Source of the DNA: Bythopirellula sp.
Lineage (GTDB): Bacteria > Planctomycetota > Planctomycetia > Pirellulales > Lacipirellulaceae
NCBI GenBank assembly: GCA_965216565.1
Contig: OZ244170.1
Location: 3,968,001 to 4,032,000 of the forward strand
DNA length: 64,000 bases
Direction of reading: 5' to 3'
Part shown: one piece after another, positions 41,953-59,475 of the stretch
How the letters are laid out: each line of letters starts with the position of its first letter
How positions within the stretch are numbered: position 1 is the stretch's first letter
The notes under the pieces: model-generated
What the model saw: the letters and a program-made list of their open reading frames with translations, nothing else
The model's database searches: none
What the model was told of the DNA's origin: nothing
Program-made: the position numbers and the translations under genes

Positions 41953-42882
41953 TTAGTTGGATTGTTCCTCGTGCTTCTGTCGGCGTGACCGTCGAGTTGC
42001 CAGTAGCCCCGCGGCACCAGTAGCCAATAGTGCGAGACCAGAAGGTTCGGGAACTGAACCGGCGTGGATTGCAACGCCCGGTTGGGTTTCGAAGGCCCAG
42101 CCGTGAATCGTTAACTTGCTGTAGTCCCCTTCCAGTTCGACATCGACCCAGGCGAAACGCGAGTCGCTATTCACATCGTCGAACTGCACACCCAAGAATC
42201 CCCGCATGCCGGGAAACTGCCCGTACGATGTAAAGAAGGAAGTAGGACCTGTGCTGTAACCACCAAAACGACTATTCAGGGTGGGGTGGGTGTAGCTCGC
42301 TGTCACACCGCCACCGGTAGAAAGAAGCTGCTTGTAGTAGCGAACCGAGGAAGTGTTGACATTAATGCGATAGCTAGAACTCAGAAATCCAAGTGCCGCG
42401 TTACTACTGCCTCCAGTGAAGAGACCTGCGTCGACGTTGGTCGAGCTCTGCAATTTTCGAGCGTAGCCACTCGTAGCAATTTGCCCACCGAAACCGATGT
42501 TCGATGCGTAGGCGTTTCCTCTATTGGTTGTGTTCCTATACGACCGAAAGTAGTTGTAGAATTTTACAGTCGCCATGGTGCCGGCAGAATTTACGTTCGT
42601 ACTCGTGCCCCCCACGTTGAAGCCATCAGTGGTTGAAAAAGAAGTCTTATTCAACCCAAGCCGTAGGTCCGGCGTGCCATCGTTATTGAGGTCCAGATCG
42701 AATGTCTGACCTGGGAGAATCATGATGTTTTGATTTATCTTGCCACTGGTCGCTGCCTCGGCCGCCTGTCCGCCAACGAGTGCTGCGCTTGCCGCCGCGG
42801 AATAGCCAATGAGCTTCTTCTTGAGTTGGCTCTTTTGATTCTTGCGCGCGAGATGTTTCTTCGATGTGCGACGTTTACGCAT
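41953..42882 (-). CDS. PEP-CTERM surface protein, Ser/Thr/Tyr-rich
   Basis: Very basic N-terminus then YSAAASAAL...AEA signal; DLNNDG; VPEPS + TM + RRSRR. Confidence 0.85.
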   Translation of the reverse strand: MRKRRTSKKHLARKNQKSQLKKKLIGYSAAASAALVGGQAAEAATSGKINQNIMILPGQTFDLDLNNDGTPDLRLGLNKTSFSTTDGFNVGGTSTNVNSAGTMATVKFYNYFRSYRNTTNRGNAYASNIGFGGQIATSGYARKLQSSTNVDAGLFTGGSSNAALGFLSSSYRINVNTSSVRYYKQLLSTGGGVTASYTHPTLNSRFGGYSTGPTSFFTSYGQFPGMRGFLGVQFDDVNSDSRFAWVDVELEGDYSKLTIHGWAFETQPGVAIHAGSVPEPSGLALLATGAAGLLATRRSRRQKHEEQSN

Positions 42883-43183
42883 GAGATCTCCCCCTTTGGA
42901 AGCCGGTTCGTCGGAAAAGAATTGAGCAACTAGATGGCAGCCGATGTCTTGGGCTTAATATAGTCGCCGGGAGTAGAATTCACCAGTTTAATCGAGTTAT
43001 TTCAATAGATACTGTTAGAGCTCGGAAAGCTGTATTATTTGCGGATAGCAATTAAACCGAGTCTGATTCAGAATTTACGACGTGGCCTTTCGCACAAGAT
43101 TCACCATGGGCTGATGCCAGCAAATCATACGTGGGGGTTTGGTAGCTAAAGGGTAGTTTTGATTTCAAGTAGCTAGGAAAACC

Positions 43184-43582
43184 ATGGAAGCTGAAGCACG
43201 CAGTGATGATGCGTTGAGAGACTGTCCGTTTTGCGGGGAGAAAATCAAAGCGATTGCTAAAAAGTGCCGGTACTGTCGCGAGTATCTTGACGAAGAGATG
43301 CGAGCGCAAAACTTGAGGGAATCGATGCCCTCGGCAATCGACCGCTTCATCGCGCCGGACTATACGCCCTCCTATGCAATTACCGCTGGATATTTAGGTT
43401 TATTCTCCTTATTGCCTTTGATCGGAGTTCTGGCAATTGCTTTTAGCTGGCATGCCCTACGCCGACTTCGGCAAAATCCTGAACAACTTGGTCGAGGAAG
43501 AGCAATGTTTGGCTTGGTGATGGGGATCATTACCACATGCTTCTGGGGAGGCATAATCATCGCCGCCGCCATCAGTGGGTGA
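43184..43582 (+). CDS. Zinc-ribbon + DUF4190-like membrane protein
   Basis: CPFCGEKIKAIAKKCRYC; hydrophobic segments with GRGRAMFGLVMG. Confidence 0.8.
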   Translation: MEAEARSDDALRDCPFCGEKIKAIAKKCRYCREYLDEEMRAQNLRESMPSAIDRFIAPDYTPSYAITAGYLGLFSLLPLIGVLAIAFSWHALRRLRQNPEQLGRGRAMFGLVMGIITTCFWGGIIIAAAISG

Positions 43583-43603
43583 GGCCGCTATTTGCCAAGT
43601 CAG

Positions 43604-46600
43604 TCAGTCCCTGCGGTAGACAGGTTCCTGGTCATCAATTTGCCAACCGACTACGTCATTCAAATTCAGGCGGAATGGCAGCCCTTGGCGGAGAAGCGGA
43701 AACAATTGCGATTCGCCCACCAACTCTCCTTCAAATTGCAGGCCCCCATAGTCTCGTGAGATTGAGTCAACCGCTAAGCGAAATTCTCCGCTCTTAACCT
43801 GTGGGATACAGTACGCTATCACCTCCAGTTGCGGATTCGCGGCCGACTCGAATCGTCTTGCTACCTCAGACAGGGCGAGTCTATGCTCTCGGTCACCAAC
43901 CACATTGGGCTGCTGTTGCCAGGAGCTTAGTGAAAGTCCCTGTCCAAGGACCAAGGGCACAACACCGCTTTGTATCCAGTGAGAAACCAAATCGTGATGT
44001 GCCGGATGCATTCGAAAACCACGCCAAGAGTCCACATCTTCGATACAGAGAATCCGGGAATGGCCTTTGGATAGTTCGCCTGTGACTCTTCGGGCAACAT
44101 CCTCTGCCTCTCGATGCTCGGTTTCGGAGAGGGCCACAGTCCCCACGACTAGCCAGTATTGGCACTTAGCGGCAGTTTCGAGTAATGGATGCGTTTCGCC
44201 GTCAAATTCCCAACCTCTGTCGAATGGCCCCTTTCCCGTTGCCAACCACACTCCAGATTTATCGAGCTGAATTGCAAAGCATCCGGAAGATTCCTCCCTG
44301 CGAGATCCCAGTGAAAGCAGTTTCTTGTCCGATAGTTTGTTTCTATCTAACGCGCTTTCGATCTGTTCGCTGTCCAAGTGCCAAGGTGTCTCGGAGAGAA
44401 AGACTGCATGAACAGTGTTAAAGTCATAGGGCAGTGCCACGGGGAATTCTCGTTGCAGTTCCCCGTATTCTTTGCCCCAAAAAACAGGCCCAGTTGATTC
44501 GCTGTGATAGAACGCAGTCGCCGACTCATCTTTCCTGGCGACTTCTAGTGCAAGTTGCTGCGCGCGGCGATGATTTTCTGTCGCTGCTGCCACGATTGCA
44601 AGATAGTCGACGTCGTTTGATTTCTGTTCGCGGCGGGACGCAAGCTGCTGAGCTTCTTTAAACATGTCCGTTCTTAGTAAGGCTGCAAAAAGACGAGCCT
44701 GATACAGGTCCCTCGTATAAGAGTACGAGAAGGAATCCTCCTCACCCTCCAGTAACTTCTTGGCGTGCTTGGCAAATGCCGAGTGGTCGCCTTGCTCCCA
44801 GGCAGCATTGGCCAAGTGGCGTGTTACTTGAGAGTCAGAGCGATGTGTGGTTCGATGGGCTAACACCAGTTGTTGCAGTCCATTCCAATCCTGGTCAGCG
44901 ATGAATTCACGTGCCAAGGTATTAAAGGCATCTTCCTTTGAGTTGTCAGACCCATAGTGCTGAGCCCAAGTTCCTGCAGCAATCGACAGTTGCAAAATGT
45001 GAGTATCGAAACCAGCACGACCGTTTGCCTCGGCCAACGATCGACCTTGCTGAAGCGACTCGATAGCCGAGTTCCACAACTGCTTTCCAGCCGCGAGTTC
45101 TGCTTTATAGTAATGCCATTGAGGATCGTCCGACTGATGTGCTTGGTGCAATTCGAGAAACGCTGCGACAGCTTCCCAGTGCCCTACTTGCGATGCCAAA
45201 TGGCACAGTTGTGCAAACCGGTTTCTCTTTTCGTCTGTAAGATTGTAGGCAGCGCTAAATCGTCCTTGCTTGTAGAGGACATTTGCCAGCATATAGTTGA
45301 GGGTCTCTGCATTGTACTGCTGGTTGTCATTTGGGTCCGATTCAGATGGTCGTTCTAACCCTTGACGCAAGAGCGCTTCCGCTTCTGCGTAACGACCATC
45401 CTCCTCTGCTAAGTGAGCAGAAAAATAGTAGCCCGCTAAGGAGTTGGGAAACTCGCGAACGAATTGAGCGCTAATCTGTTCGAGTTCTTCGAGCGAAAAT
45501 TGCGAGCCAATATCCTGGTATTCATAGACAATCGCGGTGAACAGCGCCTGCTTGCCGGGCGATTGATTCCAAGCCTCAACCCCGCGTCCAATGGAGCTCA
45601 TCGCGTCGACATAATTTTCGACGTAGCCATTGCGCGTCTGCTCGTCGTGCTCCGCTTGAAAGGCGAGTCGAAATTCGTCTGCAGCCTCTTGGAGTCTGCC
45701 AGCACTGCGCTGTGCAAGCCCGGCGACGTAATGACTTGCTGGCGACGTTGGGGAATTCCTTTGAAGATAGTCTCGCAGAAACGCAATCGCCTCTGGGTCT
45801 TGCCACGCAACCGATTGGGCCACCAAGGCTGCTGCTTTAGTTGGGTCCTTCTGACGCTCTAAGATGTTCTCAAACTGAGACTTCTGTTCAGCAGGCAACG
45901 CCAATAGCAGGGACTGCAAAGCGTTGGCGTGGTTAGGATCGATGCGGAGTATCTGCTCCCACTCCGCCAGGGCATTTTCATCTTGGCCCGAACGTTGGTA
46001 CAGTCGCGCCATTGTTTCACAAAGCTCAAGTGTCGGTCCCACACATTGCTTGTACTTCTTGGCATACTCGATGGCTCGTGCAGGATCTTTCCAGCGATAC
46101 GAATTCATCAGGCCGAAATAGGTCCCAGGTGTCTCTTGCGGTCGAGAGATTTGCTCGAAACATCGCAGTGCTTCGTCCTGTTCCCCAGCGGATTGCCAAA
46201 GATAACCAGCCGTCAGCCAACAGTACCCAACCATTTCCGGCGGGATCGGCTGGGTCTCGGCTTGCCGGAGTTTGTTTGTCGCATTTTCGTAGTCGCCCTC
46301 AGATATAAGTTGGTTCGATTCCGTGAGCAGATCGCTCCAGCGATTAAATCCTTCGTACAGATTGGTATCGAAGTGCCTTGCGTAAACTCCCCACTCTTCC
46401 GAGTAGTGAATGCCTTGATCCAACCGCTCCCAGTCGTACAGCTTCCACTGATCACCATCCCAACCAAGGATCAGACGCAATTCGGCACGGTCTTCTAGGT
46501 CGGGTAGTTTACCGTAAGCATAGATTATGCGAGTGTCGTGATCGTCCTCCGGAGTGAGTACACGAGCCACAACCAAATTGCTCCAGTAAGTATCTACATA

Positions 46601-47086
46601 AGCGGACTTTTTTAGCTGAGTTCGCAGATACCGCTTCTCCAAGAGATTATAGTTATCGAGATTTCCACCTAGCTCGATTCGCTTGAATAGCTTGTGGTGA
46701 TCAACCAAATTGCGGAATTGCTCGCTATCATTTGCCGCTGCAAATGCTCGCAGGTTGTTTAGTAGGCTTTCGATTGCTTGACGCTCTTCGACGTTTTCAA
46801 GCGGAATGCCAGGCAATACGTCATCAGAGGCCTCGAAGTTGCTAAACGCATCGACGGCTTCCGATTGCAGATGGGAAGTACTGTGCAAGCGGGTGACCGT
46901 CACGTTCTCGTCGGTTAACCGGGTCCGACGAATCACAAACCCAATAAATACGACAGTTGTGATTAGGCTAAGTAGAATTCCTCCCACGATGAGCAGGATT
47001 GGAATAACGCGGCGAGGTTTCTGGCGTTCGTCGATGGAGAGCCACTCGACATCCGAATCGAAAGAAGGATCGTTGCTGTGATTCAT
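43604..47086 (-). CDS. Large membrane-anchored TPR-like protein
   Basis: 1160 aa; N-terminal TM; TPR-like repeats such as ALAEWEQILRIDPNHANA. Confidence 0.78.
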   Translation of the reverse strand: MNHSNDPSFDSDVEWLSIDERQKPRRVIPILLIVGGILLSLITTVVFIGFVIRRTRLTDENVTVTRLHSTSHLQSEAVDAFSNFEASDDVLPGIPLENVEERQAIESLLNNLRAFAAANDSEQFRNLVDHHKLFKRIELGGNLDNYNLLEKRYLRTQLKKSAYVDTYWSNLVVARVLTPEDDHDTRIIYAYGKLPDLEDRAELRLILGWDGDQWKLYDWERLDQGIHYSEEWGVYARHFDTNLYEGFNRWSDLLTESNQLISEGDYENATNKLRQAETQPIPPEMVGYCWLTAGYLWQSAGEQDEALRCFEQISRPQETPGTYFGLMNSYRWKDPARAIEYAKKYKQCVGPTLELCETMARLYQRSGQDENALAEWEQILRIDPNHANALQSLLLALPAEQKSQFENILERQKDPTKAAALVAQSVAWQDPEAIAFLRDYLQRNSPTSPASHYVAGLAQRSAGRLQEAADEFRLAFQAEHDEQTRNGYVENYVDAMSSIGRGVEAWNQSPGKQALFTAIVYEYQDIGSQFSLEELEQISAQFVREFPNSLAGYYFSAHLAEEDGRYAEAEALLRQGLERPSESDPNDNQQYNAETLNYMLANVLYKQGRFSAAYNLTDEKRNRFAQLCHLASQVGHWEAVAAFLELHQAHQSDDPQWHYYKAELAAGKQLWNSAIESLQQGRSLAEANGRAGFDTHILQLSIAAGTWAQHYGSDNSKEDAFNTLAREFIADQDWNGLQQLVLAHRTTHRSDSQVTRHLANAAWEQGDHSAFAKHAKKLLEGEEDSFSYSYTRDLYQARLFAALLRTDMFKEAQQLASRREQKSNDVDYLAIVAAATENHRRAQQLALEVARKDESATAFYHSESTGPVFWGKEYGELQREFPVALPYDFNTVHAVFLSETPWHLDSEQIESALDRNKLSDKKLLSLGSRREESSGCFAIQLDKSGVWLATGKGPFDRGWEFDGETHPLLETAAKCQYWLVVGTVALSETEHREAEDVARRVTGELSKGHSRILCIEDVDSWRGFRMHPAHHDLVSHWIQSGVVPLVLGQGLSLSSWQQQPNVVGDREHRLALSEVARRFESAANPQLEVIAYCIPQVKSGEFRLAVDSISRDYGGLQFEGELVGESQLFPLLRQGLPFRLNLNDVVGWQIDDQEPVYRRD

Positions 47087-47143
47087 TTGCAGGCGGCAGG
47101 CGTTGAGTGACAGTCAAGGCGACCGCACAGTTCTTGGTGGAAA

Positions 47144-47656
47144 CTAGACCCCTATTGTTTTCAGCGTCCAATTCCCGATTAGCACGGCGATCAAACATGA
47201 GCCAATCCAGGTAGGCCACTGTCGCTGCACTATCGTATGACGCATCTCACGGAGGCAAAAGATTCGATAAGGGATCTGCAAAACTACGGCAATCCAAAGC
47301 AGCCAGCCCACACGATGGAACTGGATTGACTTAGTCAAATCACCACTCGACAGTGCAATAAAACTTCTTGTCAAACCGCATCCCGGGCAATCGGTTTCGA
47401 ACCAATAGCGGCTGCCACACATGGGCGGGAGCTCGACGCCACCGATGGTTACCGCCGAGGTCGTTCCGCTATCTTGGACGGAGAGCACAAGTGAAAGACC
47501 AAGTATCACAATGCTTGCTATGAGCATCGTCCAATGTCGATCGCGCAATTGTCGAACAATCTTCGCGGAATTAAGACTGGACCCTGCCTGATGTTCTGCG
47601 ACGGTCGGTTCGAGAACCAATTGGACTTCGTCATTCATGCGGGTCGCAATTCTCAA
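47144..47656 (-). CDS. DUF2752-like membrane protein
   Basis: PPMC...CPGCGLTRSF...H motif between TM helices. Confidence 0.85.
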   Translation of the reverse strand: MRIATRMNDEVQLVLEPTVAEHQAGSSLNSAKIVRQLRDRHWTMLIASIVILGLSLVLSVQDSGTTSAVTIGGVELPPMCGSRYWFETDCPGCGLTRSFIALSSGDLTKSIQFHRVGWLLWIAVVLQIPYRIFCLREMRHTIVQRQWPTWIGSCLIAVLIGNWTLKTIGV

Positions 47657-47661
47657 AAAAA

Positions 47662-48387
47662 TCAGCCCATCGTTTCGTTAGATACAGAAGGAACAAACAC
47701 GGTATCGCACTGGATGCAGCGTAACTTGCGCCCTGCCATTTCGTGGCGAAAGCGATACTTCTTTTTGCAGCTGGGACACGTTACCGAAGCTGTTGATGCG
47801 GGGTTGGCCAGCGCTTCGGAAGATGGACTATTGTTGGCCGTGGGCGATGGGGCGGGAGGCACTGGGGGTTTGAACGGTTCGCTTAGATTTGCTTGAACGG
47901 GGGCTGCTGCGGTGCTGCTTTGCTCTTCCACCAACAGGCTAACCGGATCCAAAGGAAGCTTTTCCTGGTTGAGTTCCACCCACCGTGCCGCGTCTCCATT
48001 CAGTGGACTTTTCACGTTGTAAACCTGATAGGCCAGCAATTCGCCGATGCGCATTACGATGGACGCCAATGGTTCGCCGGAACTCCAGTGGTCGCCCACA
48101 CAAATGGCATGGGGAGCAATATTCGGATGAAATACGGGCGACAACATGCGGCATTGGGGTGGAGTGCGCGGATAATTCCTTGGCAACACAATCTCAACCA
48201 TGTGGCTTTTAACGCCTTGCAACTGGTCATCGACCATGCGAACACTATTAATACGAAACTCAAGTTGGTAGCGCTCGGGAGGATCTCCCTCGGCTTGGAT
48301 CAAACGGACTCGAGGATGAAGCCGCGCGTACTCTTTCAGTTTTGCATGGTCGGCAGTCAACCGTCTCAAACGTACCGTACTCATCAA
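47662..48387 (-). CDS. E2 ubiquitin-conjugating-like enzyme with C-terminal zinc ribbon
   Basis: RLRRL N-helix; LPRNYPRTPP; FHPNIAPHAIC (HPN and catalytic Cys); W; SPLNGDAA; CPSC...CIQC. Confidence 0.9.
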   Translation of the reverse strand: MMSTVRLRRLTADHAKLKEYARLHPRVRLIQAEGDPPERYQLEFRINSVRMVDDQLQGVKSHMVEIVLPRNYPRTPPQCRMLSPVFHPNIAPHAICVGDHWSSGEPLASIVMRIGELLAYQVYNVKSPLNGDAARWVELNQEKLPLDPVSLLVEEQSSTAAAPVQANLSEPFKPPVPPAPSPTANNSPSSEALANPASTASVTCPSCKKKYRFRHEMAGRKLRCIQCDTVFVPSVSNETMG

Positions 48388-49694
48388 TCGCTCTCCTCAG
48401 CTTCTTGATCGGTAACGATATTTTGACTGGTGATGTCAAACCGTTCAGGGATCAAATCGACCAGCGTGCTAAAGTCGATCGCAAATCCCAGCCCTTCGGC
48501 AATCCTCTTTTCAGCAGTCATAGAGTTGATGCCGACTAGGTGTCCCTGAGAGTCGTAGAGTCCCCCGCCACTATTGCCGGGGTTGATTGGTGCGGAGGTC
48601 TGCAAGATCTTAAACTTCATATTCCCGCGCCTTTGACTTCGAATTTGCGAGAGGCTACCTGACGTATGGGTCCAGCCCAACCCGTGGGGATTGCCTACAG
48701 CAAATACTTCATCGCCAATCTTAGCTTTTTCGTTGTTGTCCCAATTTGCCTCTTGGACGTCTCGATTAGAAAGTGGAGCTGATACGATGGCCAGATCGAT
48801 ACCGTGGGGAGCGACCCATTCAACTGCGCCGGGAATCGACACTTGACTAATCGACATCACCATGACACTGGCGAGGTCGGACAGATTTTTTGGAGCACTT
48901 GTCGTCGAATCGGAGTAGTTCTGGTCGATGACATGCCGGTTCGTCACGATGTAGGCCTGTCCATTGTTGACTTTTAGCACAACGCCCGAGCCGATGCCGG
49001 CACGTCCGAACCCGGCATCAATTTGAATTAAGACATTCGCCCGCATGGCACGTGCGATGTACTCAGGCAAGTCGTCCAGTGAACTGGCATCAATGGCGAG
49101 TTCCGACATAGAGACGGCAGCCCGCGGTGTGCCAAAGTAGCTGGACAGCCCAATAGACCAGCCTACGACGTCTAACAGTCCCAACACCATCGCGGCAACG
49201 GCTAGTCCCATACCCCGTCGATTTTCGCGATGGATCACCAGGGCGATGCAACCGATCAGGATTGCGATAAGTCCCGTGATTATACCGAACAGAGGAATGC
49301 CCAGCAGTGCGACGACCATCGCCCAAATGCTCGCCCGATTCCACCTCCTATCAACTTTCCTGGCGTCTTCTGCCTCAAGACTATTGAACGATTTAGGCGT
49401 CGGGAGTGGCTCGGTGCTTTGAAGTTCTTCGCGAGTGATCGTCAGCGGCGTTTTTTCGCTGCTGGCAATCGTAGCTTTGCCCTCGGTACACTCATACGCG
49501 CTGCAGCCGTGGCCCTCTTGCCAACAATTTTCGTGGTGGACCGCTCCGCAAGACGTGCAGACCGCTACGGGGATGCTGAGGCTAATCTCTGCGCTGCATT
49601 TAGCACATAACGCCCCCGCCTCTCTCTCACCGGCATTGCGTATGATGGGGTCGTTGTGTGACACGTGTTTCACCAAGCTCAAAAGACTATGCAT
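48384..49694 (-). CDS. RING finger / TM / trypsin-like serine protease fusion
   Basis: CAKC...CTSCGAVHHENCW...GCSAYEC (prokaryotic RING pattern); DUF4190-like TMs; triad TNRHV, DLA, GNSGG. Confidence 0.88.
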   Translation of the reverse strand: MHSLLSLVKHVSHNDPIIRNAGEREAGALCAKCSAEISLSIPVAVCTSCGAVHHENCWQEGHGCSAYECTEGKATIASSEKTPLTITREELQSTEPLPTPKSFNSLEAEDARKVDRRWNRASIWAMVVALLGIPLFGIITGLIAILIGCIALVIHRENRRGMGLAVAAMVLGLLDVVGWSIGLSSYFGTPRAAVSMSELAIDASSLDDLPEYIARAMRANVLIQIDAGFGRAGIGSGVVLKVNNGQAYIVTNRHVIDQNYSDSTTSAPKNLSDLASVMVMSISQVSIPGAVEWVAPHGIDLAIVSAPLSNRDVQEANWDNNEKAKIGDEVFAVGNPHGLGWTHTSGSLSQIRSQRRGNMKFKILQTSAPINPGNSGGGLYDSQGHLVGINSMTAEKRIAEGLGFAIDFSTLVDLIPERFDITSQNIVTDQEAEESD

Positions 49695-49712
49695 AATTAC
49701 GCCAACATGGCG

Positions 49713-50423
49713 TCATATCTCGGAGACAACCACAAACAGTAGCATCAACGCAGAATAGATCGCAGACAGTACGATGGCCGTCCATCCCATGATACTAAAA
49801 AGTGGCCCGCATCGCTTCAGTTTGTCGCGTCTGGGAAGAATGTAACCAAGGGCGATCAATAGCATCAGAGGAGCACAAAGCCCCAACAGCGAGCAGATAA
49901 AGATTCCTGTCACCCATTGTTTCATGGATTCCAGCTCATCGCTGAGCTTACCTTGACGACGAAGATCTCCCGCCGACATGGGATCGACTGTCTCAAAATC
50001 TGTTTGGCAGTATCTGCACCGCAGAGCAATCGATTTTATTTTCTCCCCGCATGCTGGACAACTCTTCGTGTCTCCCCAGGCGGTGAGAGGTGCTTGCACC
50101 GAGGCTTCCGACTTGTCGATTATCGATGCCTGGTCACAACCATAGGTTCCACAGCCACCCACTTCTGACCAACACTCTCGATGGTGCACTTGATCGCAAC
50201 TTGGACAGGTGACGCAATCTTCGCTGACACCAATGTCACTCTGACAAATGGGGCACAGCGCATCTCGCCCAGCATCCAGGGTCACCGAGTTTAGGAGCTT
50301 CAGGTCGGCGGTAACTGCTAGACCCTGTTCGCAGCTGGGACAGCGGAACGAACGATTGGCGCGGTCCTCGGGCAAACGGATCTTCGCACCGCACTGGCAA
50401 GTAATCGTTGTGCTGCTGTCCAC
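49713..50423 (-). CDS. Zinc ribbon / RING finger / zinc ribbon membrane protein (candidate E3)
   Basis: CQC...CPSC; CPIC...CPSCDQVHHRECW...GCGTYGC; CPACGEKI...CRYC; C-terminal TMs. Confidence 0.87.
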   Translation of the reverse strand: MDSSTTITCQCGAKIRLPEDRANRSFRCPSCEQGLAVTADLKLLNSVTLDAGRDALCPICQSDIGVSEDCVTCPSCDQVHHRECWSEVGGCGTYGCDQASIIDKSEASVQAPLTAWGDTKSCPACGEKIKSIALRCRYCQTDFETVDPMSAGDLRRQGKLSDELESMKQWVTGIFICSLLGLCAPLMLLIALGYILPRRDKLKRCGPLFSIMGWTAIVLSAIYSALMLLFVVVSEI

Positions 50424-50427
50424 TTGT

Positions 50428-50967
50428 TTACGGCGCCTCAGCCACTACGCTTAGCAGGACTCGCACCACCATCCAGAATCCCTGCACGGCAAGTGAAACC
50501 AGAAACATCTTTTTGCCCTTTGGTTTACCCTGAATCATCCAGATGATGCCTACGATACACCCAATTCCGGAACAGAGAATAGCAATCACCCACTCACCGG
50601 TGGACAGGTCGTCGTCTTCGTAACCTCCAGCGGAGCTGGTCTTCTTTACCTTCTTTTGTTCTTGTTTTTTGAGATCGGGATCAAAGATCTCTCCGCAGAA
50701 CCGACACTTGACCGCCTTGCGAAGAATCATTTCGCCACAGGCGGAACAGGGCTTGCGGTCGTCTTCTTGAACCTCGCCGGAAGTCAAATCTGCTTCGCTC
50801 AGTCCAGCCAGCGGCGACGCGAGTGGGTCGAGTGCATCGTCCTCTTGTTGAAGATTCGGGATCTGCAGCACACCACCGCACTTGGGACATTTGGCTTTTT
50901 TCCCGGCGGAACTATCTGGTGTGCTGAGCGTGGCACCACAGCCGTTGCAAGTCACTTTGATAGACAC
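50428..50967 (-). CDS. Double zinc-ribbon membrane protein (paralog A)
   Basis: CNGC...CPKC and CSAC...CRFC; two C-terminal TMs. Confidence 0.85.
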   Translation of the reverse strand: MSIKVTCNGCGATLSTPDSSAGKKAKCPKCGGVLQIPNLQQEDDALDPLASPLAGLSEADLTSGEVQEDDRKPCSACGEMILRKAVKCRFCGEIFDPDLKKQEQKKVKKTSSAGGYEDDDLSTGEWVIAILCSGIGCIVGIIWMIQGKPKGKKMFLVSLAVQGFWMVVRVLLSVVAEAP

Positions 50968-51092
50968 TGGTTAACTCCCCTACAGTTAAGATCCTGTCAT
51001 TACATTCGAAATAGCAGATGCATCGAAAAGTTGGCTTCTATTTTATCGAACCTCCGTCGCCGATTCCTCATTTTTCTCCTGCGGAACAGCCG

Positions 51093-52076
51093 TCATCGGA
51101 GATCACTCCTTAAATCGATAGCGGCCATGAGAGACTTGAGCAACCGAAGGAACCACACAAAGGCAACGATGGCCGCCACAAGTATCGTTATGCCGAGAAT
51201 TCCCAAGACAATCCCAGCTTCCTGATCTCCCAAAACCACACTAAGAATACCAATTCCAACGGTGCCGAAGAATAATACGACACCGAAGATTATGAATCTC
51301 GCCGCACTGCGAGCCAAAACATCGTCATCAAGATGTATTGCCGTGCGGCGAATAAACAGAATGAAGAAAACGTTTCCAATAGTTGAGCAGAGGCTTCCGA
51401 GAGACTTGAGAGCCTCTGACTCCATCCCACTACCAAACATAGAAAGGCCTGCACTTGCCATCGTGCAGAAAAAGGCGGTCAACGCAAAAGCACGGGCTCC
51501 ACTGTTTGCAGGAACCGCGGTGGTCCGCGCTTGTCCAATGAGTATGGTTAGGCCGGCTCCTAGAATGGTCAGTCCGGCAACTCCGAATACTGTTAGAAAC
51601 AAGACTGACGGAGCCTTGTTATCTTCTTCCACAAAGGCACCAGTCACCATCAGTGCCACCATCATCGCAACGAAGCAGACAAAGACAATGACTATGCCGT
51701 AATAGATATTCGCCAATCCTCCTCGGACCTTATACCAACTGGGATCATTCGGATCGAATGCTCCGCCACTCGTCCTGGCCATCGATTTATCGAAAATCGT
51801 GCTGCAAAAACGGCACTTCACGGCCGTGCGAATGATCATCTCGCCACACGCGGGACAAGGCTTACGTTCGTCTTGGTCCTCTTCCCCAGCAGTTGTTTCT
51901 TCCTCACCATAGCCTCCGAGAGGCGATGCGATTGGCTCGAGTGCGTCGTCCTCTTGTTGAGGGCCGGGGATCTGCAACATACCGCCACACTTGGGGCATT
52001 TCGCGCGCTTGCCGGCAGCAGAGTCGGGCGTGCTGAGTTTACTTCCACAGCCGCTGCAAGTCACTTCGATGGGCAC
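51093..52076 (-). CDS. Double zinc-ribbon multi-TM protein (paralog B)
   Basis: CSGC...CPKC and CPAC...CRFC; about 6 hydrophobic segments. Confidence 0.85.
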   Translation of the reverse strand: MPIEVTCSGCGSKLSTPDSAAGKRAKCPKCGGMLQIPGPQQEDDALEPIASPLGGYGEEETTAGEEDQDERKPCPACGEMIIRTAVKCRFCSTIFDKSMARTSGGAFDPNDPSWYKVRGGLANIYYGIVIVFVCFVAMMVALMVTGAFVEEDNKAPSVLFLTVFGVAGLTILGAGLTILIGQARTTAVPANSGARAFALTAFFCTMASAGLSMFGSGMESEALKSLGSLCSTIGNVFFILFIRRTAIHLDDDVLARSAARFIIFGVVLFFGTVGIGILSVVLGDQEAGIVLGILGITILVAAIVAFVWFLRLLKSLMAAIDLRSDLR

Positions 52077-52149
52077 TAGTTAATTCCCCTACGTTGAAAA
52101 GTCAGTCTTCGGAATCAAGAGTACGTCGCTATCCTCAGGGCGTTTCTTC

Positions 52150-52286
52150 CTAGAACCAGTTTCAAAAACCGAAAACAGTTCTATGTAAGCCGACGGCGTT
52201 AGCCGCGGGTGGCGTAAGTCTAGGTGTTGTTCTGATGCTACCCGACGCTAGCGCGGTCGGCTCATTGGTTTTGAAACAGCTTCTAG
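52150..52286. mobile_element. MITE-like element with an internal REP-like palindrome
   Basis: Terminal inverted repeats CTAGAACCAGTTTCAAAA / TTTTGAAACAGCTTCTAG (16/18 match); internal imperfect inverted repeat 52187-52210 / 52240-52263; no ORF. Confidence 0.7.
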
Positions 52287-53350
52287 GCATTCTTAGACTC
52301 CTTTAGGGAGAACTCCAATACAGTTTTCCCAAGGACAATCTGATCTCCATCTTCCAGAATCCGGTTGGTTACGGGAATACCATTCACGTAGGTTCCCTCA
52401 GGCGAATCGCAATCTTCGATCACAAACCGGCCTCCTCGATTGACGATCTGCGCGTGCCGAGGTTCGATGGCGTCGTCTTTGAATAGATAGATATCAGCCT
52501 TGGGCGAACTTCCCAAGAAGGTGGTGTCCTTGAAAAGGATAAACTGCTTGCCGGCCAACGGGCCCTTACGCATCATTAGCCAAGCGGTCTTTGTCCAGCC
52601 CTCGACAAGTCCGACAAACAATCCGACCGACGCACCAATCACGGCAAACCCAACGCCACGGCTATACGTGGCCTGTCCGTCTTCGGTAAGCAGCACCAGG
52701 CTAATGGGATCGAAAAGCAGACCCCCCAGCAATCCACCCAGTACCGCGCCGACTAGGCCATTGATGATTACTTTTTTCTCGCGCAACGCAATGCCTTGGC
52801 CAATCCCGGCAGGAATCGAGACTATAGCCCACGCCGCTCCACGGCCCATCATCAATACCAATAGAGCGAGCCCTGTGGGCATGACATTGGGATCGGGATC
52901 TTCCCATAGACTTTCTGCCAAAACGCTCATGATTCCAAATACAAATCCTGTGGGGATCAGAGCCATGACTCCACCAAGGAACCCAACGCCGAGTCCCACG
53001 AAGCCACAACGAATTGCCCGCAGAGGATTTCGGCAGATGATCCCTTCGGCAGAGCCCAAGAGCAGGCCAATGAAACCAGCAACCGTGGGGAACAGTAGGA
53101 GCTTGGCGGCCAAGCCTTCATCTTCCAGATCGTTGTCGTCGACCCAGGGTTCCAAAATTCCCCACCCGATGAGACCACCCACCATGGCGGCGAGGGAGAG
53201 ATAGAACCAGTTTGCGTAAATCACCTTCACGATCCACGACTGATGTCCCATCTCGCCGAGGTCACGGCTGAGGTATTGCTGCATCTCGACGTATTGCTCA
53301 ACGTCGGGTGAATGCAGATCAGTGGACGTGATACGGATTGGATCCGACAC
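52283..53350 (-). CDS. Multi-TM membrane protein with C-terminal FHA domain
   Basis: About 6 Gly-rich TMs; FHA-like FLGSSPKADI...PRHAQI...GTYVNG...LEDGDQIVLG. Confidence 0.85.
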   Translation of the reverse strand: MSDPIRITSTDLHSPDVEQYVEMQQYLSRDLGEMGHQSWIVKVIYANWFYLSLAAMVGGLIGWGILEPWVDDNDLEDEGLAAKLLLFPTVAGFIGLLLGSAEGIICRNPLRAIRCGFVGLGVGFLGGVMALIPTGFVFGIMSVLAESLWEDPDPNVMPTGLALLVLMMGRGAAWAIVSIPAGIGQGIALREKKVIINGLVGAVLGGLLGGLLFDPISLVLLTEDGQATYSRGVGFAVIGASVGLFVGLVEGWTKTAWLMMRKGPLAGKQFILFKDTTFLGSSPKADIYLFKDDAIEPRHAQIVNRGGRFVIEDCDSPEGTYVNGIPVTNRILEDGDQIVLGKTVLEFSLKESKNA

Positions 53351-53355
53351 AAAGA

Positions 53356-54573
53356 CTACCTTTCGTCCGGTTCTGGCGAATCGGGAACTTCTAGTTCGGG
53401 TTTACGAGGCTCGAGACTTGGTGCCGCGGGAAGTTTATCTGCCAGGGGAATCGGGGTTGTTTGTTTTTTAAGATTCGATTCCGGAACTGTTCCTTTCTCG
53501 TCGCTTTGCGATTTCCTCTCTTTGTCCGCTTGCTCGAGTATCTTTAGCTGCTTGGCTTGGAGACGTCTGGAAAGCTCCGCCAGGGCCCGGCGTTCGCGGT
53601 CGTCGAAGCTGTATCTTGAGCTAACCTCGTCCAGCCGCTTCGATATTCCCAAGAGATTTCCGATCAGCAGTTTGCGATCGTTGGCGAGTTCTTTGAGTTG
53701 CTCCTCGGAGAGTTCGTTGGTCTCGGTCGGCATCGATTTCATCTGCTTGGTGGCAGAGGCCAGAAATTTCTGCACCTCGGCCAGTTCTTCGCGCAAGCCA
53801 AGTTTCGTCAGGCGGAAATCGGTGTAGTTGAACACCACACCGTCGACAATCGCTTGACGCTCCCAGGAAGACTTCATGCCGGCAAGCAGATAGCCCAAAA
53901 GGAACAACGCCAACAGGGCCAGCGGCGTCGCCGCATACGAAAAGAATCCAGGTTCCTCAGCGGGGCCGATTCCATTAGCACCCTGTGCGTTTGCCGAACC
54001 CTCCTTGGCAGCCTCGGCGGCGGGATTGCGGATGCTGGCTTCGACGGTGCGAATGGTATTGCCAATCCAATAGTGACTGATGGGAGTCGGCTTACCATTT
54101 TTCCAGGCAAAGACTCCCTCTAAATCTCTCACTGGATCGACAACATAGGCGACTTGGCCGGGACCCGAGAAAAAATGCTCGTGGATGAAGCAGTCGCGGT
54201 CGGAGAGGAAAATGCCGAAGTCGGGATGCGAATGGTACCAGCCGACAATCCGTTTGTCTTCGAATCGAGAATCCATCTCGCTATTGATCTGGCTCCACGA
54301 TTCGTGCGTGAAGGTGACCTCGGCAAATTTGCTAGTGGCGCTCTCGCAGCGAATGAAATCTTCGGCCACAGCATAGGGACCATCGTCGTCCTGGTACCAC
54401 AATCCGACCAGCACCCCGCAGATTTCAACGGAGGTGTCTTGCTTGGCATGCTTGGATATTCCTTGATGGACCTCAGGCGAAATGTGAAATCGAAAATCCG
54501 ACTTGCCACTGGCAGGAAACTGGCTTTGCTGGAGTTGTTCGTCGGCCAAGCCTCCGACATCAATATCACTCAT
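53356..54573 (-). CDS. JAB/MPN (JAMM) isopeptidase with TM and coiled coil
   Basis: EICGVLVG; WYHSHPDFGIFLSDRD (HxHx7Sx2D); TM ATPLALLALFLLGYLLAG; likely ATG at 54573 overlapping the E1 stop. Confidence 0.92.
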   Translation of the reverse strand: MSDIDVGGLADEQLQQSQFPASGKSDFRFHISPEVHQGISKHAKQDTSVEICGVLVGLWYQDDDGPYAVAEDFIRCESATSKFAEVTFTHESWSQINSEMDSRFEDKRIVGWYHSHPDFGIFLSDRDCFIHEHFFSGPGQVAYVVDPVRDLEGVFAWKNGKPTPISHYWIGNTIRTVEASIRNPAAEAAKEGSANAQGANGIGPAEEPGFFSYAATPLALLALFLLGYLLAGMKSSWERQAIVDGVVFNYTDFRLTKLGLREELAEVQKFLASATKQMKSMPTETNELSEEQLKELANDRKLLIGNLLGISKRLDEVSSRYSFDDRERRALAELSRRLQAKQLKILEQADKERKSQSDEKGTVPESNLKKQTTPIPLADKLPAAPSLEPRKPELEVPDSPEPDER

Positions 54574-55780
54574 GCCTTGCTCCCCCATTTGCTGTCGGAT
54601 CCTGCAACAACGGCCCCAGCAATTCTTGCCGGTCTCCTGCAAATTCGTAGTATCTCGCGTCCATGCCCGCACGTCCTGCTAGGATATCCCATGGTGGGAT
54701 TCCGAGTTCGCCGAGTGTTCGATCAAGCAGAGACGAGTCTTCGCCTAGCGTGTGATAAATATTGGGAGTGCGCGGTTCGTTGCATTTTTTGCAGCGGCCC
54801 TGGTCTTCAGAGACTTTACCTAGCGAGGTATAGATTTCCTCGGTCTCATCACAATTAGTACAGGTAAGTGTGGCCAGGAGGTCTTGATTGGTTTCAATCA
54901 CCGCTGCGGCTCCCAAGTCGGATCGGACGCGCTCCAAGAACTCGCCCACGGTTGTCTTTGCAATCTGCCAGTCTAGTTCTTCCACCGGTTCGTAGGGCTC
55001 ATGCGAGGGGCACTCCTCAAGTCTTGAATAGCTCACCAGATAACTTTGGTGATTGGTGCCATCGAGCACGAATCCTTGTCCGGCAATCGACGGTAGTTGA
55101 TGTAGCATTTTTACTGCTTCTTGCACCTGAATGCCAGCAATTATTGAGGAAGAAGTTGGCGTGGTGGGTACTTTCCCCTGTTGCATCTCTTCGCGAGTGA
55201 GCAGTGCGCAACTCCTACGGGCCTCAAGCATTTGCCAATCGATCTCGCTCATGGTGCATTCGTAACACGGCCCCGAGGCGGCGTCGAATACCCGCGCAAC
55301 CCCGTCGAGCCGTTCGATAGCTCCATCGATCCACGGTTTCCCAACCCTAGCTGCCGATAGATTGATGGCCACGCGAGCCTCGCGATTGTCGAGACCGCCG
55401 AGAATCACATCAGCCCAGCGATAAACTCCCAAACCCAAATCATAAACGATGTTGCCTTGGAACGACTGGGTGCGAAGCTCAGGATAGATGTCCCGTGCGC
55501 GTTCCGTAGCCACTTCCGCTTTGGCCCGGCCACAATCATCGCCGCGGTACAGAACAGAACGAGACAGATTCGAGTTTTCAATGGTATCCAAATCGGCAAC
55601 GAACATCTTGCCCACGCCGAGAAGGGCCAAGTTTTTGATGATTTCGTTTCCCAGTGCCCCCGCACCAATCACCAGAGCTTTCGAGGAAGTTAGAAGCTGT
55701 TGATCCCACCAACCAATCAGATCGAAGCGAGAGAAGCGTCCTTCCTCTAGCGCCGAACCAATCTTAATGGGATCCGTCAT
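54566..55780 (-). CDS. E1/ThiF-family ubiquitin-like activating enzyme
   Basis: IGAGALG, DLDTIENSNLSR, LDNREAR, CYEC, RSC (candidate catalytic Cys), CPSH, extra CTNC...CKKC; GGAG RBS before ATG 55780. Confidence 0.92.
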   Translation of the reverse strand: MTDPIKIGSALEEGRFSRFDLIGWWDQQLLTSSKALVIGAGALGNEIIKNLALLGVGKMFVADLDTIENSNLSRSVLYRGDDCGRAKAEVATERARDIYPELRTQSFQGNIVYDLGLGVYRWADVILGGLDNREARVAINLSAARVGKPWIDGAIERLDGVARVFDAASGPCYECTMSEIDWQMLEARRSCALLTREEMQQGKVPTTPTSSSIIAGIQVQEAVKMLHQLPSIAGQGFVLDGTNHQSYLVSYSRLEECPSHEPYEPVEELDWQIAKTTVGEFLERVRSDLGAAAVIETNQDLLATLTCTNCDETEEIYTSLGKVSEDQGRCKKCNEPRTPNIYHTLGEDSSLLDRTLGELGIPPWDILAGRAGMDARYYEFAGDRQELLGPLLQDPTANGGARHE

Positions 55781-55796
55781 AAGAACTCCGTCCGAT

Positions 55797-56117
55797 TCAG
55801 TCGCACCCGACGCCAAGGATTGTGCATGGAGAATGGAACAGACGCCCCACCCCGGCGGTTATTTCCGGCTGGAGTCTAAGGATATCACCCTCTTCGACGT
55901 GGGCGGATTCCAGCGTGTCTGTATCCAAGAGCTGCCGGCCAGATTTTTTGTGATGAAACTTGTAGCTCATTGCCTGACCATCCGGGCTGTGTCGAGGCAG
56001 ATTCATGCGATCGATCAAGACGGCAATCAGACGATTCACTTCGGCATCGGGAGGAACTTCTACCAATTGACGTTTGTTGCCGGTTGCGTCCCAGACTTCG
56101 ATTTTGATATCACTCAT
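55797..56117 (-). CDS. Ubiquitin-like beta-grasp protein (YukD/EsaB-like) with C-terminal extension
   Basis: Ends its fold with TLESAHVEEGDILRLQPEITAG, then 17 further residues; ATG at 56117; first gene of the E1/E2/JAB operon. Confidence 0.87.
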   Translation of the reverse strand: MSDIKIEVWDATGNKRQLVEVPPDAEVNRLIAVLIDRMNLPRHSPDGQAMSYKFHHKKSGRQLLDTDTLESAHVEEGDILRLQPEITAGVGRLFHSPCTILGVGCD

Positions 56118-56505
56118 ACGCTGCATTCTCGAACGTCTATTGAATTTCTTACTTGGTCCTTGAATCGCCACGAGGCCACTACTTCAACCATTGCAGAGAA
56201 TTAGGCGAAGCATAAGCAATTGCGGTTATGTAGATTTTAACCACATGTTTTGTGTGTACTACAGCAGATTTGCACTACTTTCTTGGGTGATCGTCCGCTG
56301 GGAGGATGCAACAAGGCATTCGCAAGAAGTTCTTCCAGTGATAGAGTTTAGCTGTGCTTGTTGGCGAAGCCACGATCACCATGCCCGTGCCAGAAGTCTA
56401 CTGTGCCACGTTCCTTTAGCATTGCCTTGAAAAGTAATAATCCAAATTGAGTTCGAAAGAGGACCAGTCAGCGATTTGGATGAAAACGAACCGTCGCGAT
56501 GCCAA

Positions 56506-56578
56506 TAGCCGGCCCACCACTGTCTACCCGCCGTGGTGGGCGGTCCGAGGGACAGCGAAGGCAGGTATGCTTCCGACA
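56506..56578. repeat. Palindromic dispersed repeat, copy 2
   Basis: Shares the 30 bp core and flanking similarity with 30577-30650. Confidence 0.8.
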
Positions 56579-56764
56579 GTAAATTGAACTCTAAGTCACG
56601 ATTATGTCGCCCTTGTCTCTTTCATTGGCAAGGTGCTAGCTAGCTCGATTACGCTCTTCACCTAGGCCGAAGTTGTCTTAACGGCTCAGGGCGATTCTGC
56701 TAGTATCCGCCCCGCTCTTTAGAGAGCCAATCAATCTCAAGTATGTTGCTATTCCAGTGAGACT

Positions 56765-57592
56765 ATGATGTCGAATCCATTGACGGTCCTCATTCCTTGT
56801 AAGGATGAACGCCTCAACATTGTGCCCTGCATTGAATCCATTCAATCGTTTGCCGACGAGATTCTGATAGCGGATTCAGGCTCAACCGATGGCACTTTAG
56901 AATTGGTTCACAAGCGTGGTGACTGCCGTGTGATCGAACGCGAGTACATCAACTCGGCCGACTTCAAGAATTGGGCGATTCCGCAGGCGAGTCATCCCTG
57001 GGTTCTTATTCTGGACGCTGATGAACGGATCACAGAGGAACTAGCGGCAGAGATTCGGCAGACACTTGCGAACCCTGCCGTTGAGATCGATGGCTATTGG
57101 ATTGGAAGACAAAATCACTTCGTGGGTCACCGCATCAATCATTGTGGTTGGAATCGAGACGGGGTGATACGGCTTTTTCGGCGCGACGACGTGCGTTATC
57201 AAGAGCGCTGGGTACATGCCAAGATGGAAATTGAGCCGGAAAGGGTAGCTCGCCTCAAGGAAACGATGTTGCATTACACAACGTGGTCGACCGACGACTA
57301 TTGCGAAAAGTTGAATCGCTATGCGAACTGGACGGTCAACAACTACGTGGCCAAGGGACGTCAGCCGAGTGTGCTATCGATGTTTCTGGCGGCACCGCTA
57401 CGATTCTTACAGCTTTACTTGTTGCGAGGCGGGATTCTCGATGGCGCCCCCGGTTTTCAGGTATGCATGTATTCGGCGTTCTACTCGTTTATGAAACAGG
57501 CCAAGCTATGGGAAGTGAGCCACGCCCGATTAGAGCCAGGTGCCGAACCGAGGCTGGCAGTTCACGCGAAAGACACAGCCGACGCCGCGTAG
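56765..57592 (+). CDS. Glycosyltransferase family 2 (KdtX/WaaE-like)
   Basis: LTVLIPCKDE, ADSGSTDGT, WVLILDADE, RLFRR, VH, LHY, ILDGAPG. Confidence 0.92.
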   Translation: MMSNPLTVLIPCKDERLNIVPCIESIQSFADEILIADSGSTDGTLELVHKRGDCRVIEREYINSADFKNWAIPQASHPWVLILDADERITEELAAEIRQTLANPAVEIDGYWIGRQNHFVGHRINHCGWNRDGVIRLFRRDDVRYQERWVHAKMEIEPERVARLKETMLHYTTWSTDDYCEKLNRYANWTVNNYVAKGRQPSVLSMFLAAPLRFLQLYLLRGGILDGAPGFQVCMYSAFYSFMKQAKLWEVSHARLEPGAEPRLAVHAKDTADAA

Positions 57593-57632
57593 AAATGAAG
57601 CGAATTGCTTAGGCCTGCGTTTTCAAGCATGC

Positions 57633-59231: not shown

Positions 59232-59475
59232 GCGGCTTTGCTTCAAGCAGTTGCGTGTGCTCACTTGCGAATGCCAGTGCTAGCACGTGAGAGTACGCGA
59301 TTATTTCTTAATATTGCGACCTGTTTGGCCGACGATGTTAACTCTTGCGGCCTGGGCAGCCGATACCAATTCTATCGGTTGGAGGGCCTACTGCCGCCTA
59401 TGCAAAAAGTGCGGCAGGAGACGTTTTGTTGTCAGTAGCGTTCATGTGTCATCCAATAGAAGAGCGACTGCGAGT

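Follow-up and report, generated by a model that had tools for sequence, protein, structure and literature searches.

Ubiquitination through an E1-E2-RING cascade is a hallmark of eukaryotes. Operons encoding a ubiquitin-like protein (Ubl) together with E1, E2, RING and JAB proteins were reportedly predicted in prokaryotes by Burroughs, Iyer and Aravind in 2011 (Mol Biosyst), with RING fingers of the Prok-RING_1 type and Ubls resembling YukD. Passages of later articles cite this 2011 work for predicted bacterial operons of E1, E2, E3 and deubiquitinase (PMC7159879; PMC11601596; PMC11601603), for a complete prokaryotic Ubl-conjugation set including a RING-type E3 (PMC7159879), and for "uncharacterized" operons of a related kind that Actinobacteria, Planctomycetes and Acidobacteria possess sporadically, close relatives often lacking them (PMC4197634). 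Parts of two further articles describe an operon of Caldiarchaeum subterraneum that encodes a ubiquitin, an E1-like and an E2-like protein, a small RING finger protein and an Rpn11-like JAMM peptidase (PMC5654768; PMC6043591). There, the JAMM peptidase removes a nine-residue extension from the ubiquitin precursor, and the E1-E2-RING cascade has been reconstituted in vitro; in the literature searched, this archaeal, soluble cascade is the only reconstituted prokaryotic one that we found (PMC5654768, in part). Here, we analyze an operon of this kind from a planctomycete, Bythopirellula sp., located at positions 43604-56117 on the minus strand of a 64,000-nucleotide (nt) stretch of contig OZ244170.1 (assembly GCA_965216565.1, positions 3,968,001 to 4,032,000), which is called the window below.

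The best-supported reading of this operon is a complete ubiquitin-like conjugation system organized at the cytoplasmic membrane, and we give this reading a probability of about 0.7. The class of operon is not new, having been predicted from genomes in 2011, and the window locus is a complete member of that class: it encodes a beta-grasp Ubl ending in AG, a ThiF-type E1, an E2 with the HPN motif and a cysteine, RINGs of family PF14446 on membrane proteins, and an intact JAMM peptidase. The initial annotation of the window had already remarked that RING-containing prokaryotic operons were noted by comparative genomics, correctly so, as passages of PMC4197634 and PMC7159879 citing the 2011 prediction indicate.

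The operon and its conjugation enzymes

The operon consists of 11 intact open reading frames (ORFs) in one direction, in the order Ubl, E1, JAB, FHA, ZnR-TM, ZnR-TM, RING, RING-protease, E2, DUF2752 and TM-TPR (ZnR, zinc ribbon; TM, transmembrane; Table 1). Spacing ranges from overlaps of 1-8 nt to gaps of 18 nt for most genes, with larger gaps flanking the first ZnR-TM gene (206 and 125 nt) and ahead of the TPR gene (57 nt). A Pfam family could be assigned to nine of the 11 products, the two ZnR-TM proteins giving sub-threshold zinc-ribbon matches only. A hydropathy scan located hydrophobic segments in eight products and none in Ubl, E1 and E2. Several statements of the initial annotation hold up here: the 11 co-directional genes stand in the order it gave, its count of eight membrane proteins agrees with hydropathy, the families it proposed for a profile search (YukD, ThiF, JAB, Prok-RING_1 and UQ_con) are all matched in Pfam, the second RING falling just under the cut-off, and the motifs of E1, E2, JAMM and both RINGs that it called intact are also conserved across orthologues. 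What the sequence itself shows is which domains are present, that their catalytic residues are intact and conserved, that the Ubl precursors have tails, that the order of the genes is conserved and that there are membrane segments.

The start codons of Ubl (56117), E1 (55780), JAB (54573) and E2 (48384) were set by orthologue comparison. For the conservation counts given below, one sequence was taken per locus, with E-value thresholds chosen per family and with lengths of 0.6-1.6 times that of the window protein. The mean identity of orthologues to the window protein is 67% for Ubl, 60% for E1, 60% for the FHA protein, 50% for E2, 46% for RING, 40% for the RING-protease, and 34% each for JAB and DUF2752.

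Table 1. Genes of the operon, associated features and variant E2s found in other loci (E-values follow the Pfam family names).
Feature	Position	Strand	Remarks
Ubiquitin-like modifier precursor	55797..56117	-	106 aa; YukD 1.6e-7
E1 activating enzyme	54566..55780	-	404 aa counted from ATG; ThiF 3.4e-48
JAB/JAMM metallopeptidase, one TM	53356..54573	-	JAB 2.1e-13, Prok-JAB 7.5e-7
Six-TM protein, C-terminal FHA	52283..53350	-	FHA 2.1e-14, Yop-YscD_cpl 7.8e-13
ZnR-TM 1: double zinc-ribbon head and polytopic membrane domain	51093..52076	-	327 aa; zinc-ribbon matches all sub-threshold
ZnR-TM 2: double zinc-ribbon head, Lys-rich linker, two hydrophobic segments	50428..50967	-	179 aa; zinc-ribbon matches all sub-threshold
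Membrane RING: zinc ribbon, C4HC3 RING, zinc ribbon, two C-terminal hydrophobic segments	49713..50423	-	Prok-RING_1 2.7e-9, Zn_ribbon_3 3e-5
RING / DUF4190 membrane segment / trypsin-like serine protease	48384..49694	-	436 aa; Trypsin_2 9.4e-25, DUF4190 1.1e-8, Prok-RING_1 1.6e-6
E2 conjugating enzyme (UBC fold), Pro-rich linker, C-terminal four-Cys zinc ribbon	47662..48384	-	UQ_con 8.4e-11, Zn_ribbon_4 3.9e-7
DUF2752 membrane protein	47144..47656	-	DUF2752 2.8e-13
TM-TPR protein	43604..47086	-	1160 aa; TPR matches at residues 354-690 only
ZnR-DUF4190 membrane protein	43184..43582	+	132 aa; DUF4190 8.8e-11
Presumed promoter region, intergenic	56118..56764		647 nt 5' of Ubl, common to divergent glycosyltransferase gene
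E2s with Cys-rich repeat tail (other loci)	L006:12025-12936, L007:6578-7489, L012:6578-7480, L016:6263-7528		

The Ubl is the best-conserved product of the operon: over 84 sequences, 41% of its columns reach a conservation of 95% or more. Its C-terminal motif is EITAG in 83 of these and EIPAG in the remaining one; the residues after AG, numbering 0-51, are unconserved, and seven of the 84 genes stop exactly after AG. In the window, a beta-grasp core ending in EITAG is followed by an unconserved tail of 17 residues. The AlphaFold model is a beta-grasp with a mean predicted local distance difference test score (pLDDT) of 77.7, in which the tail (residues 90-106) is disordered, and its best Foldseek matches are the ubiquitin of C. 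subterraneum (6fnn_C and 6fj7; 31% identity), followed by SUMO and ubiquitin, with no YukD structure among the 50 matches listed. A PDB sequence search with the Ubl profile gave nothing significant. The EITAG motif with its unconserved extension of 0-51 residues argues for a processed modifier: the conserved AG end and the variable, disordered tail are the signature of a precursor that would be trimmed to its C-terminal glycine. In one locus (L082:9962-10396), the Ubl ORF runs 42 residues beyond EITAG into a zinc-ribbon motif resembling that of the ZnR-DUF4190 protein (see below), YukD being its only Pfam match; such an ORF could represent a fusion of Ubl and ZnR or else a remnant.

E1 is composed of a ThiF-type adenylation domain, a short loop in which a cysteine is conserved, zinc sites of the CxxC type and, at its C-terminus, a domain rich in beta structure that resembles the ubiquitin-fold domain (UFD). 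Over 78 sequences, conservation is 95% or more for the GxGxxG motif, Cys203 (ORF numbering) and three pairs of CxxC. The best PDB sequence matches are UBA1, UBA7, UBA3 and SAE2 (5.9e-23 to 4e-19), with ThiF (9.5e-18) and MoeB (2.8e-14) ranking behind them. In the structural model (pLDDT 90.1), the additional C-terminal domain is modelled confidently. VIA alignments of this model with SAE2, UBA3, Uba1 and UBA7 cover about 300 residues; they reach residue 382-383 of the model and, in the matched chains, the C-terminal end, which is where the UFD of these proteins is located. Alignments with ThiF and MoeB cover about 230 residues and stop at 260. Identification of the C-terminal domain as a UFD is suggestive, because it comes from the alignment ranges of a whole-chain model and the domain was not searched alone.

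Could such an E1 serve sulfur transfer instead? It would then thiocarboxylate the Ubl for cofactor or thionucleoside synthesis, as in the pairs ThiS/ThiF and MoaD/MoeB, and its adenylation domain indeed superposes on MoeB (Z 28.9) and ThiF (Z 28.1). However, in the PDB sequence search eukaryotic E1s outscore both ThiF and MoeB, the cluster encodes an E2, RINGs and a JAB peptidase, and most of the Ubls are made with a C-terminal tail. Moreover, a Pfam scan of the cluster and its flanks detected no gene for a rhodanese, cysteine desulfurase, thiazole synthase or molybdopterin synthase, in line with the initial annotation, which had reported no sulfur-transfer partners. We therefore regard a sulfur-carrier role as extremely improbable.

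E2 is likewise highly constrained: H87, P88, N89 and C96 as well as C204, C207, C224 and C227 of the zinc ribbon are invariant in all 37 operon-linked E2s. The best 60 of its 182 PDB matches all bear the annotation of an E2 conjugating enzyme and a name of the eukaryote type, UBE2B/Rad6 coming first (7.7e-7), and the solved relatives that rank best are eukaryotic UBE2B and UBE2N. Judged by these comparisons, E1 and E2 are both of a eukaryote-like kind. The neighboring DUF2752 protein has a C...CPGCG motif, in which C80, C90, P91, G92, C93, G94 and R97 are invariant in 37 sequences. On one contig the operon is split, with Ubl-E1-JAB-FHA at about 31 kb (L048) and E2-DUF2752 at about 329 kb (L003), and no ZnR-TM or RING gene was found in either examined stretch; in another locus (L084), DUF2752 and E2 still adjoin each other and run divergently from Ubl-E1. 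Since E2 and DUF2752 stay together despite splitting or inversion of the operon, they are likely to form a functional pair, in which DUF2752 would be the dedicated and constant partner of E2. A complex prediction for the two proteins scored 0.00 against a mark of 0.32, a value that says nothing on binding either way.

Variants of E2 were also encountered. In some lineages, the single zinc ribbon has grown into a long Cys-rich repeat tail, and the protein reaches a length of up to 421 aa (Table 1). Lone E2-like genes occur in four genomes of one related genus (L004:6965-7639, L005:12041-12715, L010:6971-7687 and L011:12078-12794); their products share 35-42% identity with the window E2 and keep HPN and the C-terminal zinc ribbon, and they are predicted to be UEV-like because the position of the catalytic cysteine is occupied by Tyr or His. 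Around the lone gene in L004 lie unrelated genes, which encode MoaA, a TIM-barrel enzyme, a sulfatase and MMPL. The four genomes are 99-100% complete, and none of them yielded a homologue of the Ubl. Outside the phylum, a plasmid of the cyanobacterium Crinalium epipsammum (NC_019754.1, 40584-41039) carries a gene annotated as ubiquitin-conjugating enzyme E2, whose product has 25% identity to the window E2 and was the sole match among the plasmids searched.

In the JAB protein, E83, H147, H149, S157 and D160 are at least 95% conserved over 68 sequences, and the catalytic domain is accompanied by a TM segment at residues 242-269 (ORF numbering) and a coiled-coil-like C-terminal region. The ligands of the first RING (C57, C60, C73, C76, H81, C84, C91 and C96) are at least 95% conserved over 53 sequences; in the RING-protease, the same level is reached over 45 sequences by all eight C4HC3 ligands together with H254, D300 and S375. 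The two RING domains share 41% identity with each other (E 2e-10). The C4HC3 order of ligands is reported for prokaryotic RINGs in a passage of PMC11354881.

Membrane partners and accessory genes

The FHA protein is as conserved as E1 (60% mean identity) and has six hydrophobic segments, with a charge distribution that fits an N-in/C-in topology by hydropathy. Its membrane part retrieved in an Atlas look-up hypothetical-protein clusters only, some of them FHA-bearing, with scores of 0.76-0.83. The FHA domain aligns to the phosphothreonine-binding FHA domain of GarA (1e-16). Phosphothreonine binding by FHA domains relies on the Arg of the GR motif, the Ser of SRxH and an Asn. In the orthologues, these are replaced by Ser (62/63), Glu (56/63) and Asp or Glu (52/63), respectively, and the His is kept in 61 of 63. 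With the canonical binding residues lost, a role as a phospho-reader is unlikely; a phospho-independent scaffold is more likely, which fits the secondary Pfam match to the YscD cytoplasmic domain.

A scaffold-like FHA domain beside a YukD-like Ubl raises the question of whether any conjugation takes place. YukD/EsaB and FHA domains serve as structural subunits in type VII secretion, and the Ubl and the FHA protein might similarly be structural subunits of a membrane machine. YukD as the best Pfam match of the Ubl, the additional match of the FHA domain to YscD, the loss of phosphopeptide-binding residues as in scaffold FHA domains, and a conservation of the FHA protein equal to that of E1 all fit such a non-covalent role. 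Nevertheless, E1, the HPN-Cys E2, two RINGs and the JAMM peptidase are co-conserved with their active sites intact, as is the EITAG end with its disposable tails; the Ubl model matches ubiquitin and SUMO, with no YukD structure in the list of matches; and neither an FtsK/SpoIIIE ATPase (EssC/EccC) nor a WXG100 protein is among the 13 products scanned with Pfam or the 12 flanking products. A purely structural role is thus quite improbable, and conjugation remains the reading that we prefer.

Two kinases are encoded near the operon: a Ser/Thr protein kinase (37024-38919, plus strand) 4.7 kb past its end, and a Kdo/WaaP-type kinase fused to a GT2 glycosyltransferase (57633-59264, minus strand) on its upstream side, among other glycosyltransferase genes. 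Neither kinase type recurs beside the operon in other genomes. The Ser/Thr kinase was considered as a partner of the FHA protein and rejected, as no kinase family recurs beside the operon elsewhere and the FHA pocket is degenerate.

The RING-protease has a DUF4190-type membrane segment, which consists of a 39-residue and a 26-residue hydrophobic stretch with a very short Arg-rich junction between them. The two ZnR-TM proteins have heads that are 59% identical over 120 aa, a relationship also seen in the DNA as a 300-nt direct repeat (72%), and different membrane parts. ZnR-TM 1 is present in a minority of loci; in ZnR-TM 2, eight Cys are at least 95% conserved over 56 sequences. The number of copies varies from one (37 loci) to two (nine loci), three (five loci), four (three loci) and five (two loci). 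At least three Lys occur in the juxtamembrane linker of 46 of 55 sequences, a count made without a control and to be taken as a lead only. The co-encoded ZnR-TM proteins are candidates for receptors or substrates of the system.

The initial annotation had described an 11-gene system, and this needs amendment at one end of the operon; the other genes stand. Orthologues of the TM-TPR protein were found in only three of 80 loci, upstream of Ubl in L030 and L032 and downstream of DUF2752 in L022. TM-TPR was accordingly rejected as a core component, and it is better seen as a clade-specific accessory that travels with the operon outside the conserved core. Its C-terminal 460 aa (43607-44989, minus strand) matched no Pfam family at E up to 1, except for one chance-level match, and Atlas leads to DUF2314, DUF4261, SUFU and Imm33-type domains, all scoring below 0.9, were dropped when a permissive Pfam scan gave no support.

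The initial annotation had missed, on the other hand, the small ZnR-DUF4190 gene, which is convergent with the operon end. Its orthologue starts right after Ubl and before E1 in 15 of 80 loci; in one of these, that of Lacipirellula limnantheis I41 (L025), direct inspection placed it at 10287-10745 between Ubl and E1 (E 2.5e-28). In the DNA, the zinc ribbon of the ZnR-DUF4190 gene is similar to the RING protein's second one (75% over 53 nt). ZnR-DUF4190 is probably a displaced twelfth component of the system.

Distribution and cellular context

How widely is the operon distributed? The E2 search covered 401 genomes of the phylum, namely that of the window and 400 others. Close E2s (E of 6.8e-46 or below) were found in 29 places, the window and 28 of the 400 other genomes, which belong to many families, and in none of three same-order genomes. 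Among 14 loci around close E2s, RING genes and other partners stand in the window order in nine. A scan with the Ubl profile, one genome being taken per species, yielded 222 loci in at least 222 species genomes. Locus comparisons were made on the best 80 of these 222 loci, all of them from planctomycetes except for one record labelled "uncultured bacterium", and partner counts on the 45 with at least 9.4 kb downstream of Ubl. In these 45 loci, E1 was found in 45, JAB in 44, FHA in 43, ZnR-TM in 41, RING in 37, RING-protease in 37, E2 in 34 and DUF2752 in 30, and no other flanking family recurs in more than eight of the 80 loci. The initial annotation had held that its reading would fall if the genes were not co-conserved in other genomes; all eight partner classes occur together in 29 of the 45 loci. 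The order Ubl-E1-JAB-FHA-ZnR/TM-RING-RING/protease-E2-DUF2752 recurs across Planctomycetota, and this conserved synteny rules out chance. The full order is present in a cultured strain, L. limnantheis I41; another one, Aeoliella straminimaris ICT_H6.2 (L028), encodes the Ubl on a contig that ends after the JAB gene.

A second, simpler cassette with the order E1-Ubl-E2-JAB was noticed in the phylum (L014, L015, L019, L020 and L021). The E2s that it encodes are more remote (E 1e-15 to 1e-28), the Ubls have E[IM]VAG or FVAG at their end, and the window RING proteins found no phmmer match at E up to 1e-3 in the examined DNA of these five loci.

The patchy distribution of the operon, with a close E2 in 28 of 400 other genomes and in none of three from the same order, together with flanking genes that vary by lineage, would suit an anti-phage or conflict system, in which the cascade tags invader proteins or activates the fused protease as an effector, in the manner of Bil or type II CBASS. 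The characterized bacterial Ubl systems are in fact defense systems (PMC11601596, in part). The initial annotation, too, had named an anti-phage or predator response among the possible roles, besides envelope signaling and a quality control resembling endoplasmic-reticulum-associated degradation. PADLOC gave weak matches of E1 and JAB to the CBASS E1-E2 and JAB models, of E1 to BilD (1.4e-6), and of the protease to the RT-protease and LmuA models. Against this, PADLOC has no model matching E2, Ubl, the RINGs, FHA or DUF2752; the genes that surround the operon in the window code for glycosyltransferases, kinases and redox enzymes, with no defense genes; and E2 is absent from 50,697 phage records, with one distant match (25% identity) in 72,556 plasmids. 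In addition, the Ubl is very strongly conserved and the gene order is stable across many families, which is easier to reconcile with conserved partners in the cell than with an arms race. A defense function is therefore unlikely, and we favor turnover or regulation of membrane proteins as the role of the conjugation system.

The rest of the surroundings is less informative. No Pfam family (E up to 1e-5) was found for three ORFs of the window, at 41953-42882 (minus strand; 309 aa), 60717-62372 (plus strand; 551 aa) and 62393-64000 (plus strand; more than 535 aa). An Rfam scan of 42000-58000 gave no family at the gathering score, and in a promoter and terminator scan the counts were not above shuffled controls, sigma-70-like sites in 42800-57000 numbering eight against a shuffled mean of 10.6.

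Proposed mechanism and comparison with known systems

An outline of the process as we infer it, from the chemistry of each step to the targets, the membrane side of the protease and the physiological role, is as follows. Initially, the JAB/JAMM peptidase would cut the variable tail off the Ubl precursor to expose the C-terminal Ala-Gly. E1 would adenylate the glycine and then take the Ubl onto its conserved loop cysteine, and the UFD-like C-terminal domain would present the soluble HPN-Cys E2, so that the Ubl passes to Cys96 of E2 as a thioester. The two membrane C4HC3 RING proteins would recruit E2 charged with Ubl and direct isopeptide formation on membrane-proximal targets, and the JAB peptidase may also reverse the modification. 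The six-TM FHA protein would act as a phospho-independent scaffold and DUF2752 as the dedicated partner of E2, while the ZnR-ZnR-TM and ZnR-DUF4190 proteins may be adaptors or preferred substrates. Finally, the serine protease fused to the second RING could couple tagging to proteolysis.

Several points weigh against this reading. The Ubl lacks the Gly-Gly end, having Ala-Gly in 84 of 84 sequences. The second RING reaches 28.4 bits with Prok-RING_1 against a cut-off of 29.1, 0.7 bit short, and a PDB sequence search with the RING domain gave weak RING/PHD matches only, all with E above 0.05. The UFD identity of the E1 C-terminal domain derives from whole-chain alignment ranges and not from a domain-level search. 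By hydropathy, the DUF4190-type segment of the RING-protease fits either a three-pass arrangement or a hairpin, so that the protease may be periplasmic or cytoplasmic. Within the examined flank, 16 of 45 loci miss at least one partner class: several of the incomplete loci have long ZnR-TM arrays that reach the end of the examined DNA, and in others, such as the split L048, genes are truly rearranged or absent. There is no unfoldase or proteasome-like partner in the cluster to explain degradation, and no experimental work on a Ubl operon with RING genes from bacteria turned up in the full-text literature searched.

A fuller picture can be drawn, which we offer tentatively and which, taken as a whole, is rather doubtful: with this operon, bacteria may have their own version of the membrane-bound ubiquitin ligase pathways. 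In it, the RINGs would attach the strongly constrained tag at the cytoplasmic face, the six-TM FHA protein with its glycine zipper would form an assembly platform or conduit, DUF2752 would tether E2, the ZnR/TM paralogues would be interchangeable substrate receptors, and the RING-fused protease, possibly on the far side, would couple tagging to trans-membrane cleavage. If true, this would be the first E1-E2-RING cascade shown working in bacteria and would provide a cultivable model of how ubiquitin signaling was organized before eukaryotes. For the conjugation system itself, the operon is complete, strongly constrained and present in cultured strains, and it thus offers a direct experimental route to the function of bacterial RING E3s and to membrane-linked tagging without a proteasome. 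What would otherwise be a gene list leads to specific experiments through the Ubl's AG end and its disposable tails, the putative phospho-independent scaffold of the FHA protein, the pairing of E2 with DUF2752, the varying ZnR-TM proteins as candidate receptors or substrates, and ZnR-DUF4190.

How does the operon compare with systems already described? With Bil, type II CBASS (Cap2/Cap3) and Bub it shares E1-type adenylation, E2-like transfer and JAB-type deconjugation at the C-terminus of a Ubl or Ubl-like protein, whereas no RING E3 is among the components listed for these systems in the part of PMC11601596 concerned. They are soluble defense systems with diverged E2s; the window E2, in contrast, matches no PADLOC model, and its PDB matches among those listed are canonical E2s.

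In eukaryotes, membrane RING pathways are represented by endoplasmic-reticulum-associated degradation (ERAD), with Hrd1/Doa10 together with Ubc6/Ubc7-Cue1, and by the MARCH ligases of the RING-CH type. The analogy lies in the membrane-embedded RING E3s and in a soluble E2 that may need a membrane partner. Homology is, however, shown only for the RING, E2, E1 and Ubl folds. The window cluster has no Cdc48-like ATPase or proteasome, and its protease is a fused trypsin-like domain.

The class predicted in 2011 agrees with the window locus in its components. Like the window locus, it combines a YukD-like Ubl, E1, a UBC-type E2, JAB and a TM-bearing RING of family PF14446, and it is sporadic and includes Planctomycetes. 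The 2011 paper may already contain some of the details given here, among them the degeneration of the FHA pocket, the precursors' EITAG end, the arrays of ZnR-TM genes, the association of E2 with DUF2752, and ZnR-DUF4190.

With the archaeal system of C. subterraneum, finally, the window locus shares the five-part logic and an extended precursor, trimmed by JAMM in the archaeon and predicted to be so here, and the archaeal ubiquitin is the closest structure to the window Ubl. The archaeal proteins are soluble and their ubiquitin ends in Gly-Gly, unlike the Ala-Gly of the window Ubl. In the window, by contrast, the membrane proteins comprise the RINGs, JAB and another five or six partners, one of the RINGs carries a fused serine protease, and the FHA membrane protein and DUF2752 belong to the core.

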